A stretch of 64,000 bases of DNA from Escherichia coli (GTDB lineage Bacteria; Pseudomonadota; Gammaproteobacteria; Enterobacterales; Enterobacteriaceae): NCBI RefSeq assembly GCF_024223415.1, contig NZ_CP100500.1. One strand, 5' to 3'. The notes under the pieces were generated by a model that was not told the DNA's origin, made no database searches, and saw only the letters and a program-made list of their open reading frames with translations. Positions 22,323-33,889 of the stretch are shown here, piece by piece. How positions within the stretch are numbered: the stretch's first letter is position 1; each line of letters starts with the position of its first letter. The position numbers were made by a program, and so were the translations under genes.

Positions 22323-22347
22323 AATTAACTACACCATTAACTACACC
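22323..22347. repeat. Tandem AATTAACTACACC / ATTAACTACACC repeats, left arm (candidate integrase arm-type sites)
   Basis: The same 25-bp tandem is present at 33743-33767 next to int; flanking ~60 bp is also similar at both ends. Confidence 0.5.
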
Positions 22348-22639
22348 GTTCGGCGCACTGTATGAAACAACGTGGAACAAATAGGCACAAGAAATATAAA
22401 GGCGGGTAATTTTAAGGGGGCGTTGCTGTCGATACGGGGATCCACATATCGAGATTGATACCTGGCTTTTTTTCCGGTTAACCTTTAATCAGGCTGGTGG
22501 GCTTTACCTGTTCTGTAGGAGTGGTCATTATGACCATTCAGCCAATGACCTTAATCAGAATTTTTCGCTAAAAAATGACGTTGGCCACGTCATCCGGAAA
22601 GCACAAAATCACGTCGATTTTTAATGGATGGTTAAACCG

Positions 22640-23087: not shown

Positions 23088-23369
23088 TTACCGCCGTAAC
23101 CGTTCCGGCTTCTTCCACTGATAAGTGTTTTTCGCGCTCTCCTGATACATCGCCACGCGTCGACGGTATGCCAGCAACTCTAGTACTCTGATTCGTATGT
23201 CGCGCATATCCACGCCGTTAAGCTCAATACCATCACGGCGCATTACATCAGCAACAACACGCACGTAATTTTCGGCGATCACGCTGTCCGGCTGCGTGGC
23301 CTGTTCGTCATGCTGCTGGCTGATTCCGGTAACGCGGCGGATTAATCCCAGTAGTTCGGCTTCTGTCAT
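23088..23369 (-). CDS. Hypothetical protein (island, distal to head module)
   Basis: 93-aa ORF; no recognisable domain; coding status uncertain. Confidence 0.3.
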   Translation of the reverse strand: MTEAELLGLIRRVTGISQQHDEQATQPDSVIAENYVRVVADVMRRDGIELNGVDMRDIRIRVLELLAYRRRVAMYQESAKNTYQWKKPERLRR

Positions 23370-23423
23370 TGTGCCCCCATCGCTCTGATAGTCTGGTGTC
23401 GTCGGGTCCTTCTGGAATTATGG

Positions 23424-23468
23424 CCCGTTACGGGGCGTCGACCTCGCGGTTTTTCGCTATTTATGAGC
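23424..23468. repeat. Inverted repeat, left copy (flanks the Nu1-like gene cassette)
   Basis: Its reverse complement matches 24169-24212 in about 42 of 44 positions, including a perfect 25-bp core CGCGAGGTCGACGCCCCGTAACGGG. Confidence 0.7.
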
Positions 23469-23661
23469 TTTTTTAGAGGGAGGTTGTTGTTTAATTGTTT
23501 GTCATATCCATTTGATAACTAAGTAAAAATAAAGAGCAATACAACAACCTGATAGTGTTTTTTTGATGCTAAAAATAAAAAAATACTAATTGAATCAAAT
23601 AGTTTTAAAAAAATACGTGGTTGTTGTATTGCGTATTTGATGGCGTAACAGAAAGTGATTT

Positions 23662-24102
23662 TTAACTTTGCTGTTCTGTAACGACTGATTGTTCCATGCT
23701 GGCACGGCGAACGCTTACGGCATGACGCCACCCAGCCAGAAAGCCAGCCATTTTATTTCGTGCCTTGCTCACATCTTCCGGTGAATAGCCGTAAATATGC
23801 AAACCTTCATCAAATCGCTGTTCTGTTTCTTCACTGAAATACTCGTCGCGCTCTGACGCAATCAACCTGGCAACCATAATCTTTTCCAGTGCGCTGGTTT
23901 CTCCGTGGTACTCAATAGCATCAAGATGGCTTTTACCCATGCACCAGAATAATGTGTGTCCGATGTGATAACCGCCGGACTTTCCGCGATCCGCATCAAG
24001 ATATGGCATGCCCTGTTTGGTCCATGCGCGAATAGTGGTTCTGTTGACCTTGAAATGTTCTGCTATTTCCTGCTGACTCACAAAACAAGCTTTATCAATC
24101 AT
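23662..24102 (-). CDS. Terminase small subunit, lambda Nu1-like (HTH DNA-packaging protein)
   Basis: 146-aa ORF; N-terminus VSQQEIAEHFKVNRTTIRAWTKQGMPYLDADRGKSGG parallels lambda Nu1 (..IRTIQNWQEQGMPVLRGGGKG..). Confidence 0.7.
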   Translation of the reverse strand: MIDKACFVSQQEIAEHFKVNRTTIRAWTKQGMPYLDADRGKSGGYHIGHTLFWCMGKSHLDAIEYHGETSALEKIMVARLIASERDEYFSEETEQRFDEGLHIYGYSPEDVSKARNKMAGFLAGWRHAVSVRRASMEQSVVTEQQS

Positions 24103-24168
24103 AATGTTACCTTAATCATGCGATTAAATGTTAATCAAGTGGTGGTGGTGTCACCTTCACGGAAAAAC

Positions 24169-24212
24169 GTCATAAATAGCGAAAACGCGCGAGGTCGACG
24201 CCCCGTAACGGG
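24169..24212. repeat. Inverted repeat, right copy (flanks the Nu1-like gene cassette)
   Basis: Partner of 23424-23468 in inverted orientation; the two enclose ~700 bp containing only the Nu1-like gene and an AT-rich tract. Confidence 0.7.
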
Positions 24213-24233
24213 TCCACATGCCGGAAAGGACCC

Positions 24234-24258
24234 GCAAAAAAAGCCGGATTTCTCCGGC
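24234..24258 (-). terminator. Rho-independent terminator after orf137
   Basis: Minus-strand hairpin GCCGGAGAAATCCGGC followed by a T-run; nearly the same terminator recurs at 26509-26532. Confidence 0.5.
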
Positions 24259-24264
24259 CTTGTC

Positions 24265-24678
24265 TCAGATGGTTTTCAGTATGCGATCGATGTCGCCGTC
24301 ATCGCCCTGGTTTGTGCCATCGTATGCCATGCCAGCTGATACGGCTTTCGGGCTGTGCATGTCCATAAAGTTTTCAAAGGCTGAAGTAAGCTCTGGTGCA
24401 ACCTTCGGGCGTTCCTGCTCTATGGTCATGCTAAGGATGCTTTTAGCCGTACCAACATCGATACAAGGCACGTTAGCCATTGCACGTAACAGCGGCTGGT
24501 AGTCGTCAGATTCATGAAGCGCCATAATCGCATCAGCGCGCGGCTTGTCCTGTTCTTCCAGTTTGTTGAGTCGGTGTATGGCCTCGTAGGTTGATAAACC
24601 TCTGTCAGCCATTGCCCGCGCTTCGGCTTTAAATTTACTCGCCAGCGGTAGCTTCATGATACTTTCATTCGTTGCCAT
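24265..24678 (-). CDS. Hypothetical head-module protein (137 aa)
   Basis: ORF directly downstream of the D-like gene in the same operon; acidic C-terminus; no recognisable domain. Confidence 0.5.
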   Translation of the reverse strand: MATNESIMKLPLASKFKAEARAMADRGLSTYEAIHRLNKLEEQDKPRADAIMALHESDDYQPLLRAMANVPCIDVGTAKSILSMTIEQERPKVAPELTSAFENFMDMHSPKAVSAGMAYDGTNQGDDGDIDRILKTI

Positions 24679-24690
24679 CGTTCCCCCTGC

Positions 24691-25026
24691 TTATCGTGCC
24701 AGCGGCTGAACGGATACGCCGGAACCCGCAAAGGCGGCGCATTTTTTCGCATCGGTGTCGACGCTATCAGGCCAGTTAACGGCGGCAATATTGAATATCC
24801 CCGTTTTGTAACACTGTGCTGATTTCTGCTTTGACGTGTCCACGGGGTGCGAAGTCAGATAAACAGCTTTGCCAGATTCCTGACCATCCCACGCCTTAAA
24901 CTCGCCATTGTCTGCCAGCATCAGCGGGGTAAATTCCTGAATAACGCCAGCATCAGCGGCAAAATGTACCAGCGTCGTGGATACCTGCTGGCTGCCTGAA
25001 AATAACTCAATGTATGGAGCGTCCAT
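24691..25026 (-). CDS. Head decoration protein, lambda gpD-like
   Basis: 111-aa ORF with gpD-like motifs (TPLMLAD..AWDG..KTGIF..WP..AAFAGSG) and lambda D size. Confidence 0.75.
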   Translation of the reverse strand: MDAPYIELFSGSQQVSTTLVHFAADAGVIQEFTPLMLADNGEFKAWDGQESGKAVYLTSHPVDTSKQKSAQCYKTGIFNIAAVNWPDSVDTDAKKCAAFAGSGVSVQPLAR

Positions 25027-25037
25027 AGAATCCCCCG

Positions 25038-26093
25038 TTAAGCAATTTTGACGGTAACAAATTTGCGAATATCTGCCGGTACCGGCTGCGGTGCGCTGTG
25101 CGTCTGCACGTACTCAATCGCCGGATCGCCGTCCTCAATCCAGTTTTTCGGGTAGTACATGTTTTGCGTTGCGCCCGTTCTTACCGCTTCCTGATCCATA
25201 ATCGCACCATATGCCACCAGCCCTTTATTGTTGGTGTTACCCAGGACCAGCAAATCAGGCTCAAGGAAATATTTTTCGGTGCCGTCGCTGTCAGTGTATT
25301 TGCCGGAATAGACGATAAGGGCCAGATCACCAAGATAGCCTTTAAAGCTCACCACTTCGCCCAGGTTTTTACAGGCCAGCTCGGCGGCGGATTCTGACCC
25401 ACGGGAAAGATCGTACAGTTCACGGAATTTTTTAAAGCTGCGTAATGTGCGCCATACCTCACCGCCCATAATCATGACGTTGGCGGGGCAACCTGCCTGA
25501 TCAGCATAAAGCTCGATGTCATAGATTGGGTCGTGCATGTCTTTATCCTGCTGGGACCATTTTTTACCACTGGCCTGCTGTATGATGCAGTTTTCCGGTA
25601 TTTTCCAGTCGATTTCATAGCGTTCTATGCCTTCGCCCTCAATGATGTTTTTTCCGGTCGTTACCGCATTCACCGCCAGCCATTCAACACGCGCTTTAAT
25701 GGCGTTTACCTGGCGGCGCATGTTGCCAGTAATCAGGCGCATACGGCGATAGGTTGGGTCGTTAAGCTGTGCCGGATCTTCTCCAGCCATGCGCATGATG
25801 GTCTTTGTTGGATCGATTTCGTGCTTTGGCTTCATGTAGCCTGGTTTAATCGTGCTGGTTTCGTACCCTTTATCGCGCTGGACCTGACTACCCACCATAG
25901 GAGAACAGAACGCAGACATCGTAACCTCTTCAATGTCCAGGGTGTCCAGCATGATGTTTTGGGTGTTGAAGGTCGCCACGTTCGGGAAAAACAGCGTGGT
26001 AAACAGCGGACTAAATTTAAATTCCGAAATATCCCCGCGATTCAGGTACGCGAAAAGCTGGTTAGTTGTAAGTGCCGTTGCTTTGCCTGTCAT
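25038..26093 (-). CDS. Major capsid protein, lambda gpE family
   Basis: 351-aa ORF with many lambda gpE identities (PGYMKPKHE, DPTYRRMRLI, VVSFKGYLGDLALIVYSGKY, VLGNT, YPKNW..GDPA, SAP). Confidence 0.85.
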   Translation of the reverse strand: MTGKATALTTNQLFAYLNRGDISEFKFSPLFTTLFFPNVATFNTQNIMLDTLDIEEVTMSAFCSPMVGSQVQRDKGYETSTIKPGYMKPKHEIDPTKTIMRMAGEDPAQLNDPTYRRMRLITGNMRRQVNAIKARVEWLAVNAVTTGKNIIEGEGIERYEIDWKIPENCIIQQASGKKWSQQDKDMHDPIYDIELYADQAGCPANVMIMGGEVWRTLRSFKKFRELYDLSRGSESAAELACKNLGEVVSFKGYLGDLALIVYSGKYTDSDGTEKYFLEPDLLVLGNTNNKGLVAYGAIMDQEAVRTGATQNMYYPKNWIEDGDPAIEYVQTHSAPQPVPADIRKFVTVKIA

Positions 26094-26508: not shown

Positions 26509-26532
26509 GTAAAAAAGCCGGATTGCTCCGGC
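26509..26532 (-). terminator. Rho-independent terminator after the PerC-like gene
   Basis: Minus-strand hairpin GCCGGAGCAATCCGGC followed by a T-run. Confidence 0.5.
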
Positions 26533-26539
26533 TGTGTGC

Positions 26540-27529: not shown

Positions 27530-27770
27530 GCACCTCCTCTACCTCTCTACACAATCATCTTTCAGGTCAGTAATGGCGCGGCTTTCAGCGGGGTAGAGGG
27601 CTTTTTTGGCCCTCTACCCGCCATCTACCACCCCCTCACAAATGCCCTGAATTATGGTAGAGGGTGTAGAGGGCTTTTAAGTACCTTCTACCTGCCATCC
27701 ACCCAATCTATCCACATGAAATATATGTAATTATTTTCTTAAGGTAGAAGGGGTAGAGGGCTTTTGTCTA
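27530..27770. repeat. Iteron array; candidate replication origin of the island
   Basis: At least six copies or variants of GGTAGAGGG(C)TTTT and its complement CCCTCTACC in about 240 bp of non-coding DNA directly 3' of the primase gene. Confidence 0.6.
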
Positions 27771-27773
27771 AAA

Positions 27774-29522
27774 CTATAAAAACGCGTCGCAGTCGTCTGT
27801 TGTTGTCACGTTGGTTTGCGTAAACCCTTTAATCCTGCGCGTTATATATTCATGACCGTAAACTTTCGCCGCTGGCTTCATGGCCTTGCTGAACTCAGCC
27901 ACGTTCAGCGGTTTGCTCCTGCCTGCATACGCCATAAACGCCAGATAGACGCGGTAAAGGCTGTTTCTGGTCGTGTACTTCACTGAATCGCCACCGCCGC
28001 CCATCATCAGGCCACGTGCTTCCTCCAGAAAATTCAGGAACTGGCAAAACTCAATAACCGGATCCGTCTGTTGCTTTATTGCCAGAGCTTCATCACCGTC
28101 TCGCTGTTCAATGAGTAAAGCCCGTGCCTTTTCAGGGTCGGCAAAGTTCGCCAGCAAGCGGCGGATAATGACAGGGATTTCAGCCGCGATCTTTTCCGGT
28201 AGCTCCCTGTCTTTTTCTGCCTCGCTTACGATGTTATCGAACCGGAATATCACCCGACGACGTGACACGCCTCCTGCCCGTTCGGTGAATATCATCGGGT
28301 TATTATTGGTTGCCAGCACAACCGCCCTGATTACCGCCGTGAATCGCTTTTCATATTTCGGGTTGATTTCCACGGGGTCGCCGCCCGTGATTTTCTTGAT
28401 GCCCGTTCCTTCGCCTGTATATTTCGGCTGGTCTGCCAGGACAATAAGCCTACTCCCGACAACCTGCGCACGCCCACCAGCATCATCAAGCGATGTCATC
28501 TCAGCGCTTACCGTGTTCTGTTTCCCTGCCAGAAGGCTGGCTATGTGTGTGAATGTACTTTTACCGCTCCCGCCGTCTCCGGTGGCCTCAATAAACATCT
28601 GCCAGTCGTACCGGTTCGCCATAATCATGTACAGCGCGGCACATATACGCATCATCTTGCGCGGGTCTTTTCCGGCAGCGTGATCAAGCCATTTATGAAA
28701 GTTTGGCGCGTTGTCGCGGATATTCTCACCTGGTACTGGCGGCGTGTACTCAATGCCGTTGTGTGTGGTGATCCAGTTCTCCGGCGTGTGCGGGGAAAAT
28801 TCCCCCGTTTTCAGGTCAAGCGCACCATTGGCGAACGGCAGCAAATCGCCGGACGGCTCGCCCATTGGTTCGGCAATAACTTTTAACGCTTCCACGGCGT
28901 TACTGATTACGCGCTTGCTGAAAGTGGCCCTGTGCTCTGAATAGATCGCCACCATTTCGCGGCTCAGTTCCATTGTGCTGACCGGACACCATACCCCGCC
29001 GCGCCATACGTGAACGATTTCACTTTCCAGATGCACACAAACGCCATCAAATCGACCAGCAAGCATCTGTGCGCGCTCACTGTCTGCCATTTGTGCCAGT
29101 TGCGTATTTTTCTGCTCCGGCATGGTAAGCCCTGCGGCAATATTTTCACGCTCAGCATTCAGATAGCGCCGCCAGTTTTCACACTTCTGACCGTGCATTC
29201 CTTCAGAGTAAAAATTCGCATCCTGAATATCTGCCGCCGCCAGCTTCTGACCAATCTTTTTGGTCTCCACTAAATCCAGTTCTCCGGCCTGGTACAGCCT
29301 TACGCGTTTTTTTCCATCCGGAACAATTTTCAGCGCATCAAGTTCAGCAAGCTGATTTGGCCCAAGCCACACAGGCGGCACATTATCGCCGGATGCGGGA
29401 CCGTCCTTCTCCTGCCACTGTTGTGCATGCGACCAGGCATCACTACCCGCAAAGATAATTACCTCTGTGTCTTTGTGTTTTATTCCGCGTGGCTGTTTTT
29501 TTACGTTCGGTGCCAGTTTCAT
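27774..29522 (-). CDS. Phage/plasmid primase-helicase (P4 alpha family; D5_N plus P-loop NTPase)
   Basis: 582-aa ORF; Walker A GDGGSGKST; architecture and size typical of satellite or PICI Pri-Rep proteins. Confidence 0.85.
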   Translation of the reverse strand: MKLAPNVKKQPRGIKHKDTEVIIFAGSDAWSHAQQWQEKDGPASGDNVPPVWLGPNQLAELDALKIVPDGKKRVRLYQAGELDLVETKKIGQKLAAADIQDANFYSEGMHGQKCENWRRYLNAERENIAAGLTMPEQKNTQLAQMADSERAQMLAGRFDGVCVHLESEIVHVWRGGVWCPVSTMELSREMVAIYSEHRATFSKRVISNAVEALKVIAEPMGEPSGDLLPFANGALDLKTGEFSPHTPENWITTHNGIEYTPPVPGENIRDNAPNFHKWLDHAAGKDPRKMMRICAALYMIMANRYDWQMFIEATGDGGSGKSTFTHIASLLAGKQNTVSAEMTSLDDAGGRAQVVGSRLIVLADQPKYTGEGTGIKKITGGDPVEINPKYEKRFTAVIRAVVLATNNNPMIFTERAGGVSRRRVIFRFDNIVSEAEKDRELPEKIAAEIPVIIRRLLANFADPEKARALLIEQRDGDEALAIKQQTDPVIEFCQFLNFLEEARGLMMGGGGDSVKYTTRNSLYRVYLAFMAYAGRSKPLNVAEFSKAMKPAAKVYGHEYITRRIKGFTQTNVTTTDDCDAFL

Positions 29523-32491: not shown

Positions 32492-33742
32492 TTATTTTCT
32501 TCTGGTTACTGGTAGCGTGGTTACGTTTTCATGTGCTCCCGCCAGTATCTCCAACCGCTCCACCCACATATCCAGCGCATTGCGTTTCGCATCCAGATAA
32601 CGGGAATGATTATAAACTCGCTGCATTCCTGGCATCTGGTGGCCTGTAAGCTGCTCCACGACGTGAGGATCCACGCCTAAATCGTTCAGCATCGTTGTAA
32701 AGGTGCGCCGGATGTCATGCAGTGACCAGTGAGGGTGTTTAAGCCTCCTGTGCGCTAATCTTCCATACTGCGATACGCTGGCCTCCTGTTTCACTTCCCC
32801 CAGCAATAAGCCCGTGTGCCTGTTCTGCTCCACCAGCTGCGTGACGAACGGCAGTATCGCTTCCGGTATGGGCCGGAATATGGCTACCTTCGTTTTGCTG
32901 TGCTCCTTCGGAACGGTCCATAGCATTTCGGTAAAATCCCACTCCCCGATCTCCGATAGCCTCAGTTCTACTGTCCTGGCTCCGAAGACAATCAGGAGGC
33001 GGATTAGTGCGACGTAGTAAGGGGAAAATATTTTTTTGTCCAGTGCCTGCAATAATTCGCCAAGTTCTTTGTTACTTAAGACACGCTGACTTATATCCGG
33101 TTTTTTCCCAACGTCAGCAACACTCATATCATCAAGAACGTTGCTGATTGCATAGCGCCGCTTCCGGCAGAACTTAAGCGCCTGTTTGCATGTCTGTAGC
33201 AGGAATCCGGCGGAAACAGGGGCTTGCTTTGCCACCCGATCAAAACAGGCCAGCCAGTGCCGTAGCTCGCATTTATCCAGCGGCATAGCACCAATCTGCT
33301 GTATTACGTGATTATTAAGTCGCCTTTTCAGGGCGATATAATCCACGCGGTTTTCCTTTACGTAATACTCAAGCCAGTAGGTAAGCGCATCGCCAACCGT
33401 TACAGGCTTTAACGCTTCCTGTACGGTGTAATTCATCTCATGACGTGGATTTTTCCCCTCAGCCAGCCATGCGCGGCACTGTGCGGCTTTTTCCCTGGCT
33501 GCTTTCAGGCTCAGATCAGGATAATTTCCCAGCTTAATCCGTTCCGGTCGTGCTCCCCTTCCCGTTCCGGCCCTGTAGGTGAAATACCAGGTTAAAAGGC
33601 CGCTGGTTGAATGCCTGACGGTCAGGTTTCCACCGTCATTAAGAAAGACTGTTTTTTGGGCGGGTGTGCCGTTGATTTTCCTTAGCTGTGTATCGCTCAG
33701 TTTGTTAAGTGCTCTGCGCATAATTTTGATTCCGGTCATCAC
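32492..33742 (-). CDS. int: Tyrosine recombinase/integrase (P4-like, DUF4102 N-terminus)
   Basis: 416-aa ORF; N-terminus ...LNDGGNLTVRHSTSG...WYFTYR; C-terminal catalytic region HDIRRTFTT...VYNHSRY; lies at the island edge next to attR. Confidence 0.9.
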   Translation of the reverse strand: MMTGIKIMRRALNKLSDTQLRKINGTPAQKTVFLNDGGNLTVRHSTSGLLTWYFTYRAGTGRGARPERIKLGNYPDLSLKAAREKAAQCRAWLAEGKNPRHEMNYTVQEALKPVTVGDALTYWLEYYVKENRVDYIALKRRLNNHVIQQIGAMPLDKCELRHWLACFDRVAKQAPVSAGFLLQTCKQALKFCRKRRYAISNVLDDMSVADVGKKPDISQRVLSNKELGELLQALDKKIFSPYYVALIRLLIVFGARTVELRLSEIGEWDFTEMLWTVPKEHSKTKVAIFRPIPEAILPFVTQLVEQNRHTGLLLGEVKQEASVSQYGRLAHRRLKHPHWSLHDIRRTFTTMLNDLGVDPHVVEQLTGHQMPGMQRVYNHSRYLDAKRNALDMWVERLEILAGAHENVTTLPVTRRK

Positions 33743-33767
33743 AATTAACTACACCATTAACTACACC
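33743..33767. repeat. Tandem AATTAACTACACC / ATTAACTACACC repeats, right arm (candidate arm-type sites)
   Basis: Identical to 22323-22347; located immediately upstream of the int start. Confidence 0.5.
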
Positions 33768-33889
33768 GATCGTTGCACAAAGGGCTACAACGTGAAACAA
33801 GCTGGAACAAGAAAAATCACAAATTTGTTTATAATCAAAAACATAATGCACAACCTGAAACATTATGAAACGGCAAAAAACACTAATTG

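Follow-up and report, generated by a model that had tools for sequence, protein, structure and literature searches.

The window, that is, the whole 64,000-nucleotide stretch of Escherichia coli DNA analysed here, contains a long inverted repeat that brackets one gene within a phage-inducible chromosomal island (PICI), and it is the nature of this bracketed cassette that is considered below. A repeat search placed the arms at 23410-23473 and 24163-24226, each of 64 nt, 84% complementary (54 of the 64 positions match on recount) and separated by a gap of 689 nt. The original prediction, made from the letters alone, had described near-perfect arms within these limits, at 23424-23468 and 24169-24212, and these are real, with 41 of 44 positions matching on recount against the estimate of about 42 of 44. 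Equally real are the perfect 25-bp core that it reported, CCCGTTACGGGGCGTCGACCTCGCG, at 23424-23448 on the plus strand and 24188-24212 on the minus strand, and the 14-bp perfect inverted repeat (GCAATACAACAACC at 23536-23549 and GGTTGTTGTATTGC at 23619-23632) within the AT-rich tract, whose G+C content is 27% over 23470-23660. One substantial open reading frame (ORF), 23662-24102 on the minus strand, lies between the arms, as had been stated. When the core was sought with up to 3 mismatches, only 2 copies were found in the window, and none appeared in 100 dinucleotide-preserving shuffles.

The Arms and the Phage cos Sites

Both arms, the left on the plus strand and the right on the minus strand, align base for base with the cosQ-cosN-I2 portion of the cohesive-end (cos) sites of phage lambda and of phage PhiR5_1, in which cos is found between the lysis genes and Nu1/A. 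The elements common to arms and phages are cosQ (GGGTCCT), the 12-nt cohesive end and the I2 segment TTTTCGCTATTTATGA, conserved between cosN and cosB, and in both arms cosN has the nick context CGTTACG/GGGCG...CCT/CGCG, the strokes marking the nicks. The cohesive end is GGGCGTCGACCT in both arms and GGGCGGCGACCT in lambda, and the distance from cosQ to the first base pair of cosN, which is 30 bp in lambda, is 29 bp in one arm and 30 bp in the other. A search of the phage collection with the region gave 69 lambdoid phage records that match the arms; nearly all of them match the arms only, most match both arms at one and the same site on opposite strands, and the matching sites sit just upstream of Nu1/TerL.

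Judged by these alignments, the arms are two complete lambda-type cos sites, convergent, which face each other across the gene rpp (redirecting phage packaging). We hold it very probable that the parts are correctly identified and that the repeat is a by-product of two independent cos sites: the arms are alike because each of them separately carries the cosQ, cosN and I2 that the large terminase of a helper phage needs, and no pairing of one arm with the other is necessary. The view that repeats of this length are not ordinary terminators was thus borne out, and the observation behind it was correct; it is because the cos sites went unrecognised that the feature was labelled a possible switch. 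The possibility that the arms belong to a repetitive element spread through the genome, which would have counted against that label, was rejected, as there are two copies in the window and elsewhere the sequence is the single cos of lambdoid phages.

In the naming published for EcCICFT073, the homologous island of E. coli CFT073, cos1 is the site upstream of rpp, here the right arm, and cos2 is the left arm (Fig S1A, PMC6739421). The parts of the cassette, as read, are the following, with cos positions counted from cosN bp 1 (23433 in cos2):

23404-23410, plus strand: cosQ of cos2, GGGTCCT, 29 bp before cosN bp 1
23410-23473, plus strand: left arm, the cosQ-cosN-I2 part of cos2
23433-23444, plus strand: cosN cohesive end of cos2, GGGCGTCGACCT, identical to lambda at 11 of 12 positions, with G6T
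23480-23491, plus strand: R3 of cosB2, GAGGTTGTTGTT, at cos bp 48-59, the R3 of N15, a block conserved in prophage cos sites
23536-23549, minus strand: R2-like element of cosB2, inverted copy GCAATACAACAACC, at cos bp 104
23619-23632, plus strand: R1-like element of cosB2, GGTTGTTGTATTGC, at cos bp 187
23662-24102, minus strand: rpp, 146 aa, previously described as a Nu1-like gene
24139-24156, minus strand: R3-PICI of cos1, AGGTGACACCACCACCAC, at cos bp 48-65, proposed Rpp binding site, matching cos1 of EcCICFT073 (Fig S1A, PMC6739421)
24163-24226, minus strand: right arm, the cosQ-cosN-I2 part of cos1
24192-24203, minus strand: cosN cohesive end of cos1, GGGCGTCGACCT
24227-24233, minus strand: cosQ of cos1, GGGTCCT, 30 bp before cosN bp 1
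24236-24259, minus strand: intrinsic-terminator-like hairpin, GGCCGGAGAAATCCGGC followed by T7, read from the sequence, ending the capsid-gene unit before cos1

The G6T change, present in the cohesive ends of both arms (23433-23444 and 24192-24203), creates the hexamer GTCGAC. Natural variation of cosN is common in bp 7-12, its right half (PMC4669245), and a change at bp 6 that is common to both arms suggests either gene conversion between them or their matching to a particular helper.

In the published island the function of both sites has been established. EcCICFT073 carries two cos sites, each of which confers lambda- and phi80-mediated transfer on a plasmid; deletion of cos1 lowers transfer of the island, deletion of cos2 raises it, and the double deletion abolishes it, and a phage cosB could not be recognised there (Fillol-Salom et al. 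2018 ISME J, PMC6092414). It was later reported that Rpp forms a complex with the phage small terminase, TerS, by which the cosB of cos1 is recognised (2019 Mol Cell, PMC6739421), so that cos1 of EcCICFT073 is both essential and responsive to RppA (PMC6092414, PMC6739421). Cleavage and packaging from either arm are known for the CFT073 homologues only, and are putative for the window. An alternative assignment, in which the AT-rich tract would be the cosB recognised by Rpp and the left arm the main cos, was rejected on the basis of Fig S1A and the primer table of PMC6739421.

The Gene Between the Arms and cos1

The product of rpp matches RppC, the redirecting phage packaging protein of PDB entry 6HLK, at E=1.7e-32, and its matches to true small terminases are weak and limited to the N-terminal helix-turn-helix, with a marginal Pfam Phage_Nu1 match (i-E 0.056, residues 8-37). 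It is 89% identical to RppA of E. coli CFT073, from which residues 1-50 differ at one position, and 25% identical to Nu1 of lambda, in an alignment that stops before the C-terminal third of Nu1, which the protein does not have. The winged-helix DNA-binding domain of Rpp proteins is distinguished by R21, T22, R25, K29, K39 and K41, and by homology the protein belongs among them; R21, T22, R25, K29, K41 and R39 are invariant in an alignment of 13 sequences of the family. A full-length TerS has some 180 aa and a C-terminal TerL-binding region, against the 146 aa of this protein. These comparisons identify the gene as an Rpp homologue and not a full Nu1/TerS, so that the earlier label, although understandable, does not hold; its product is predicted to bind the TerS of the helper and to redirect packaging, as RppA, RppB and RppC do (PMC6739421).

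The position of cos1 before rpp is that of the lambda cos before Nu1, and it was Murialdo and Feiss who in 2022 proposed bp 48-65 of cos1 as the Rpp site, under the name R3-PICI (PMC9026076). The Rpp site of cos1 (CACCACCACCAC, 24139-24156) is also nearly the reverse complement of the GGTGGTGGTGG tract found at the same cos position in islands with an N15-like TerS (L005, ~2440-2470); a flip of the strand may be what relates the Rpp type of R3 to the TerS type. Beyond cos1, the hairpin at 24236-24259 has a fold energy of -18.6 kcal/mol (z = -2.2) and was unlisted by a simple terminator scanner. A second copy of this terminator-like hairpin (AAAAAAGCCGGATT.CTCCGGC) is present in the island, the two lying at 24237-24263 and 26511-26537, ~2.3 kb apart.

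The AT-Rich Tract and cos2

At cos bp 48-59, cos2 is identical in sequence and in position to R3 of phage N15, an element that Feiss et al. (2015) located at those base pairs and defined by the block mutations GAGGTT and GTTGTT (PMC4669245). The same work describes a complex cosB layout with R3 forward, R2 reverse and R1 forward, for example in Monarch, a phage with N15 specificity. We read the AT-rich tract as a tripartite cosB of N15/Monarch specificity, of which the two halves of the 14-bp inverted repeat are R2 and R1. In prophages of E. coli O111 11128 and 04-00955, the cos that directly precedes terS/terL can be aligned colinearly with the tract at ~77% identity, and the three R blocks are the parts best conserved in this comparison; the TerS of the O111 11128 prophage starts MAFLLNKSDMASSIGISVQAFDKWGV and resembles the N terminus of TerS in the N15-like (Ravinvirus) phage MStein-2023a.

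A cosB2-like tract, at 60-80% identity, is carried by ~250 E. coli genomes, among which two that were examined hold a prophage cos and some others hold PICI cassettes (GF4 and ETEC strains). As a query on its own the tract had no match in the phage collection, its homologues being found only as prophages in E. coli genomes; with the whole region as query, the matches included an N15-like Enterobacter phage, aligned along the left arm and the R3 element. No match to the integration host factor (IHF) consensus, WATCAANNNNTTR, was found in the AT-rich tract.

The sister islands have cos2 sites of other classes. The cos2 of CFT073, taken with its flanking 140 bp, shares 97% identity with the cos that immediately precedes Nu1 in PhiR12_1, and in islands of the O26/O157 type cos2 has a third type of R3, which is lambda-like. 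In each of these islands, then, cos2 faithfully reproduces a genuine phage cos together with its full cosB, and what differs between sister islands is the class of phage copied. No statement on the phage identity of cos2 was found in the literature examined.

Exchange of the Cassette Between Islands

The cassette behaves as a unit that islands exchange. Several hundred E. coli genomes match the window only as far as 23473 on the left and again from ~24162 on the right, with a different middle between, and the points at which similarity breaks are the inner ends of the arms. The idea that the arms delimit a discrete cassette, advanced in the original prediction, is therefore upheld, as related E. 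coli islands carry a different middle at the same place. In the O26/O157 type this middle encodes a full N15-like TerS of 180 aa, 40-46% identical to Nu1 proteins, and has its own GGTGGTGG/GTTGTT tract. At least 489 E. coli genomes have sister islands of this kind (L005, L026, L027), with a full-length N15-like TerS in place of Rpp between the cos sites, and such islands may redirect packaging with a small terminase of their own rather than with the Rpp adaptor.

Other recombinants can be traced at the arms themselves. In ETEC1732 (L006, 1440-2300) the middle is that of the window, with cosB2, rpp and R3-PICI, and both arms have another type of cosN (GGGGGTCATGGGACGCG and GGGGGGTACGTGTACGCG) while keeping cosQ and TTTATGA, so that the two arms have changed in concert. 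E. coli GF4 (L028, NZ_CP172217.1, 1560-2240) has lost most of rpp and retains two phage-type cos sites facing each other, with a cosB of PhiR12 type on the left and one of Monarch type on the right; this pattern, present in three genomes, seems to have arisen by recombination of a direct cassette with an inverted one. In the HM670 group, which has the direct orientation, the arms are identical over 46 bp. The G6T change shared by the arms, the 46-bp identity in HM670, the arrangements of ETEC1732 and GF4, and the different middles together indicate repeated exchange and gene conversion at the arms.

Natural Inversions of the Segment

The suggestion of an invertible segment, also made in the original prediction, implies that related islands should show both orientations rather than a single fixed one, and both do occur in nature. 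In MSB1_3B the segment between the arms is inverted with respect to CFT073, at 99.4% identity, with the breakpoints inside the arms. A census of complete E. coli genomes was made with a 1.7-kb query in the orientation of the window and with a synthetic copy in which 23442-24194 was reversed, counting matches of at least 80% coverage in one piece. It gave 63 direct and 15 inverted genomes for the RppA type, and, by the same test, 489 direct and 5 inverted for the TerS type, so that the inverted forms are ~20 of 572 assemblies (~3.5%). Gene strands annotated in RefSeq bear out the inversions of both types. For the RppA type, HM670, CU568-3 and E5 encode the Rpp protein WP_000565609.1 on the minus strand, whereas WP4-S17-ESBL-08, CUVET16-394 and KGu016 encode it on the plus strand, with identical neighbouring genes in the direct and the inverted genomes.

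The distribution of the inverted forms is narrow. Four of the 15 inverted RppA-type genomes were examined, and they share one island variant and one chromosomal background, the direct ones sharing another; 14 of the 15 have identical match score and identity, the fifteenth standing at 89.3% and 1787 bits. This group looks like a single event inherited clonally. The inverted TerS-type genomes have two integration sites and cassettes that differ by 7%. With an RppA type at the phoQ site and TerS types at the yejO and the mdtJ sites, there were probably at least three independent inversions, and no inverted form extends beyond one island variant and one integration site. Four separate assemblies of CFT073 are all direct. 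An inversion of the cos1-cos2 segment was not found reported in the literature searched, and the words inverted, orientation and inversion are not used for the two cos sites in PMC6092414, PMC6739421 or PMC9026076.

Proposed Packaging From Two Sites

The reading that best joins these observations is that of two independent packaging sites whose shared sequence allows rare recombination, and not that of a programmed switch. From cos1, the complex of Rpp and TerS would direct packaging leftward, with rpp entering first, as lambda packages Nu1 first; from cos2, packaging would proceed rightward. Since the other cos would be met in the wrong orientation, either route should run on along the concatemer until its own site recurs. 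In this scheme cos2 would constitute a second entry, independent of Rpp, for helpers whose TerS reads R sites of the GGTTGTTGT type, a role for cos2 to which we give somewhat less than even credence. The convergent layout would be the stable one on two counts. Termination at a downstream cos is independent of cosB (PMC4669245), so that of a pair of cos sites in direct orientation each would terminate packaging begun at the other; and recombination between direct repeats would delete rpp. The use of cos2 by a terminase of N15/Monarch type in the island of the window, the reason for the convergent layout and the route of recombination are thus what we infer from the arrangement of the parts.

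As for recombination, the 25-46 bp over which the arms are identical would allow rare homologous events that lead to swaps of the cassette and to occasional inversions, and terminase cutting together with phage Red functions may help. Lambdoid helpers encode Red functions, and cutting at cos is reported to stimulate Red recombination, a result attributed to Stahl, Kobayashi and Stahl in 1985. A cut and flip by terminase is possible on paper, in that cutting at two convergent cosN sites would give the inner fragment identical cohesive ends; the crossover of the inversions falls somewhere within the identical 25-46-bp stretch, and for this reason homologous recombination and cut-and-flip give the same picture. 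Annealing of molecules initiated at cos1 with those initiated at cos2 was rejected as a mechanism, since it gives inverted dimers and not inverted monomers. Once inverted, the module should still work, transcription of rpp aside, because both cosBs and rpp travel together.

Several points weigh against two working entries. In CFT073, cos2 is dispensable, and inhibitory with lambda and phi80 as helpers (PMC6092414), and could for that reason burden the island or act as a decoy instead of benefiting it. Genomes with this type of island show no enrichment of prophages with the matching cosB: 1 of 31 has a second copy, against a background of ~5%. Rpp islands sampled from Klebsiella, Phytobacter and Salmonella showed no cos other than cos1 to a distance of 2.5 kb from rpp, in so far as their contigs extend to that distance (for Salmonella, locus L020 has no more than 1.2 kb of upstream sequence), and the second cos is therefore an addition and not a requirement of this way of life. 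Finally, a crude consensus scan gave no convincing sigma-70 promoter for rpp inside the cassette, nor any on the minus strand upstream of it. On the spread of Rpp itself, a scan of genome contigs with a peptide pattern gave 54 pattern matches, of which tblastn confirmed 0, while Rpp homologues are present in assemblies of Klebsiella, Salmonella and Phytobacter; either the species-representative genomes are without Rpp or the confirmation step failed.

Among the alternatives, cos2 might serve as a decoy, soaking up the TerS or terminase of the helper or provoking unproductive cutting, and so adding to the interference due to Rpp. It copies a genuine phage cos down to R3, R2 and R1, and the type of its cosB varies between islands as if tracking different phages; moreover, its deletion raises transfer with lambda and phi80 (PMC6092414), from which it follows that cos2 is cut at a cost to the island and that its retention needs some other benefit. 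However, a single copy of cos per island genome is a weak sink for terminase beside a replicating phage concatemer, and cutting at cos2 breaks the concatemer of the island itself, so that this role appears unlikely.

No better placed is the view of cos2 as a neutral scar, that is, phage DNA gained by recombination at the conserved cosQ-cosN and without selected function. Its absence from the sampled Rpp islands of other genera, its dispensability in the laboratory (PMC6092414) and the failure of the cognate prophages to co-occur with the cos2 type of the island would all be expected of a scar; against this, many E. coli variants, differing in cosB2 type, middle gene (Rpp or TerS) and integration site, retain the layout with two cos sites, both arms of ETEC1732 carry the same alternative cosN, and the three R blocks are the best-conserved parts of the cosB2 tract. 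The retention of the layout, the ETEC1732 arms and the conservation of the R blocks suggest selection on cos2, and mere descent without function seems to us improbable.

The programmed switch, in which a dedicated enzyme (the integrase of the island, a host invertase, or terminase by cutting and re-ligation) would toggle the expression of rpp or the direction of packaging, fares considerably worse and is judged very improbable. What stands of this proposal is that both orientations exist, through at least three apparently independent events with breakpoints inside the arms, and that re-joining in either direction of the identical ends left at cut convergent cosN sites would be chemically possible. 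But there is no invertase in or beside the cassette, the ORFs within and next to it being those of rpp and of proteins of 93 and 137 aa, and the integrase at the att site is ~8.3 kb away; no promoter was found in the segment by the crude consensus scan; the arms are ordinary cos sites, single in phages; and the inverted forms are rare and confined to their own variants, the largest group being apparently clonal, with the four CFT073 assemblies all direct. With no recombinase nearby and no promoter found in the segment by the scan, the invertase was rejected. As to the pairing of the arms as RNA or as a DNA cruciform, the long-range stem that would isolate or regulate rpp, it has only the 84% complementarity of the arms to recommend it and can be dismissed, given that the same sequence is single-copy and without a partner in dozens of phages, the conserved positions are exactly the terminase-recognition elements, a terminator stands between the upstream operon and the right arm, the inverted isolates keep the same arms, the differences between arms are not compensatory, and cos function needs no pairing.

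Returning to the reading of two independent packaging sites, it may be carried a step further, though as a tentative proposal, and one less secure than the role of cos2 as a second entry: the cassette would be an origin of packaging with dual specificity and two directions, cos1 being served through Rpp and the TerS of lambda-, phi80- or 21-type helpers, and cos2 directly by terminases of N15/Monarch type here and of PhiR12 type in CFT073, while the same module would be a cassette for swapping and flipping. If this were true, cutting at cos would stimulate recombination, alleles of rpp or terS and of cosB would be exchanged, and the island could keep pace with the helper phages of its surroundings; it would likewise explain the presence of two cos sites in some PICIs, a question that was still open in 2019. 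Virulence and resistance genes travel on these islands, which hijack the packaging of phages, and the phages able to mobilise a given island depend on its cos. The differences in cos2 class and the exchange of modules thus offer a testable explanation of the two-cos layout, namely a wider range of helpers, and the class of cos2 offers a way to predict that range from sequence. In annotation, too, repeats of this kind need no longer be mislabelled as switches or transposon ends, nor Rpp as a small terminase.

The Host Island

The island around the cassette is bounded by a perfect direct repeat, whose copies at 22323 and 33743 are 11,420 bp apart, and its other features are:

22323-22348, no strand assigned: attL, left copy of the 26-bp perfect direct repeat AATTAACTACACCATTAACTACACCG, bounding the island
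23088-23369, minus strand: conserved island gene of 93 aa (phrog_1561), the last outside cos2
24265-26093, minus strand: three head genes, for a 137-aa protein (phrog_1999), a head decoration protein and a lambda-E-like major capsid protein
27774-29522, minus strand: island DNA primase (phrog_864, E=1e-165)
32492-33742, minus strand: island tyrosine integrase (phrog_1, E=4e-73)
33743-33768, no strand assigned: attR, right copy of the 26-bp direct repeat, abutting the integrase gene

With a length within the ~10-12 kb of EcCICFT073-family cos PICIs, att repeats, an integrase, a regulator, a primase, the rpp/cos module and colinearity with CFT073, the element can be assigned to this family as a PICI of 11.4 kb, a new member with a different cos2, which on sequence is of N15/Monarch type; its induction, replication and transfer in dependence on a helper are predicted from the family. 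It also encodes a single-stranded DNA-binding protein (SSB) and a PerC-like activator, and the tyrosine integrase, ~8.3 kb from the end of the right arm (24226), is its only recombinase. In CFT073 and related islands, too, a 93-aa protein is annotated at this position beside the cassette, and those E. coli loci share its accession, WP_000133413.1. Among the head genes at 24265-26093, the decoration protein is D-like and the 137-aa protein is called a head-tail connector in some RefSeq records. Just downstream of the primase gene, at 27590-27765 in the window, GGGGTAGAGGGCTTTT occurs three times, spaced 73 and 87 bp, and these copies are iteron-like and could mark the replication origin of the island.

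Comparison With Known Systems

The invertible systems Hin/Gin/Cin and Fim likewise have a segment of less than 1 kb within inverted repeats and show both orientations among isolates. In contrast to them, the window has no adjacent invertase, its repeats are terminase sites and not of the hix/gix or fim type, and the inverted forms look clonal and not mixed. SaPIbov4, cited in PMC6092414, is also a satellite with two putative cos sites, but it is an unrelated Gram-positive island with other cos sequences.

The cos sites of N15/Monarch type offer a closer parallel, as cos2 has, like them, cosQ, cosN, I2, the R3 of N15 at bp 48-59, an inverted R2-like and a direct R1-like element and an AT-rich spacer, and is colinear with the cos found before an N15-like terS in prophages. 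It differs in that no terS and terL follow, in that it faces the 3' end of rpp, in the position of R1 at bp 187, and in having no IHF consensus that could be found.

The closest system is EcCICFT073, a member of the same family, with 91-92% DNA identity over 1.7 kb, the same gene order and the same flanking genes, the same cos1 tract (GTGACACCACCACCAC, then rpp) and a second cos past the 3' end of rpp in the opposite orientation. It differs in its cosB2, which has ATGTCCGGTT repeats of PhiR12 type and not the N15/Monarch-type GGTTGTTGT of the window, in the cohesive ends, which have G6T in both arms of the window, and in integration, which is by phoQ in EcCICFT073 and by an allantoate amidohydrolase-like gene in the window, with different integrases. 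The layout of cos1 and cos2 is already published for this family (PMC6092414, PMC6739421), and in this respect the core of the present finding is known; what is added, namely the phage identity of cos2, the exchange at the arms and the rare inversions, is modest but testable, and bears on a question that the field itself has stated.

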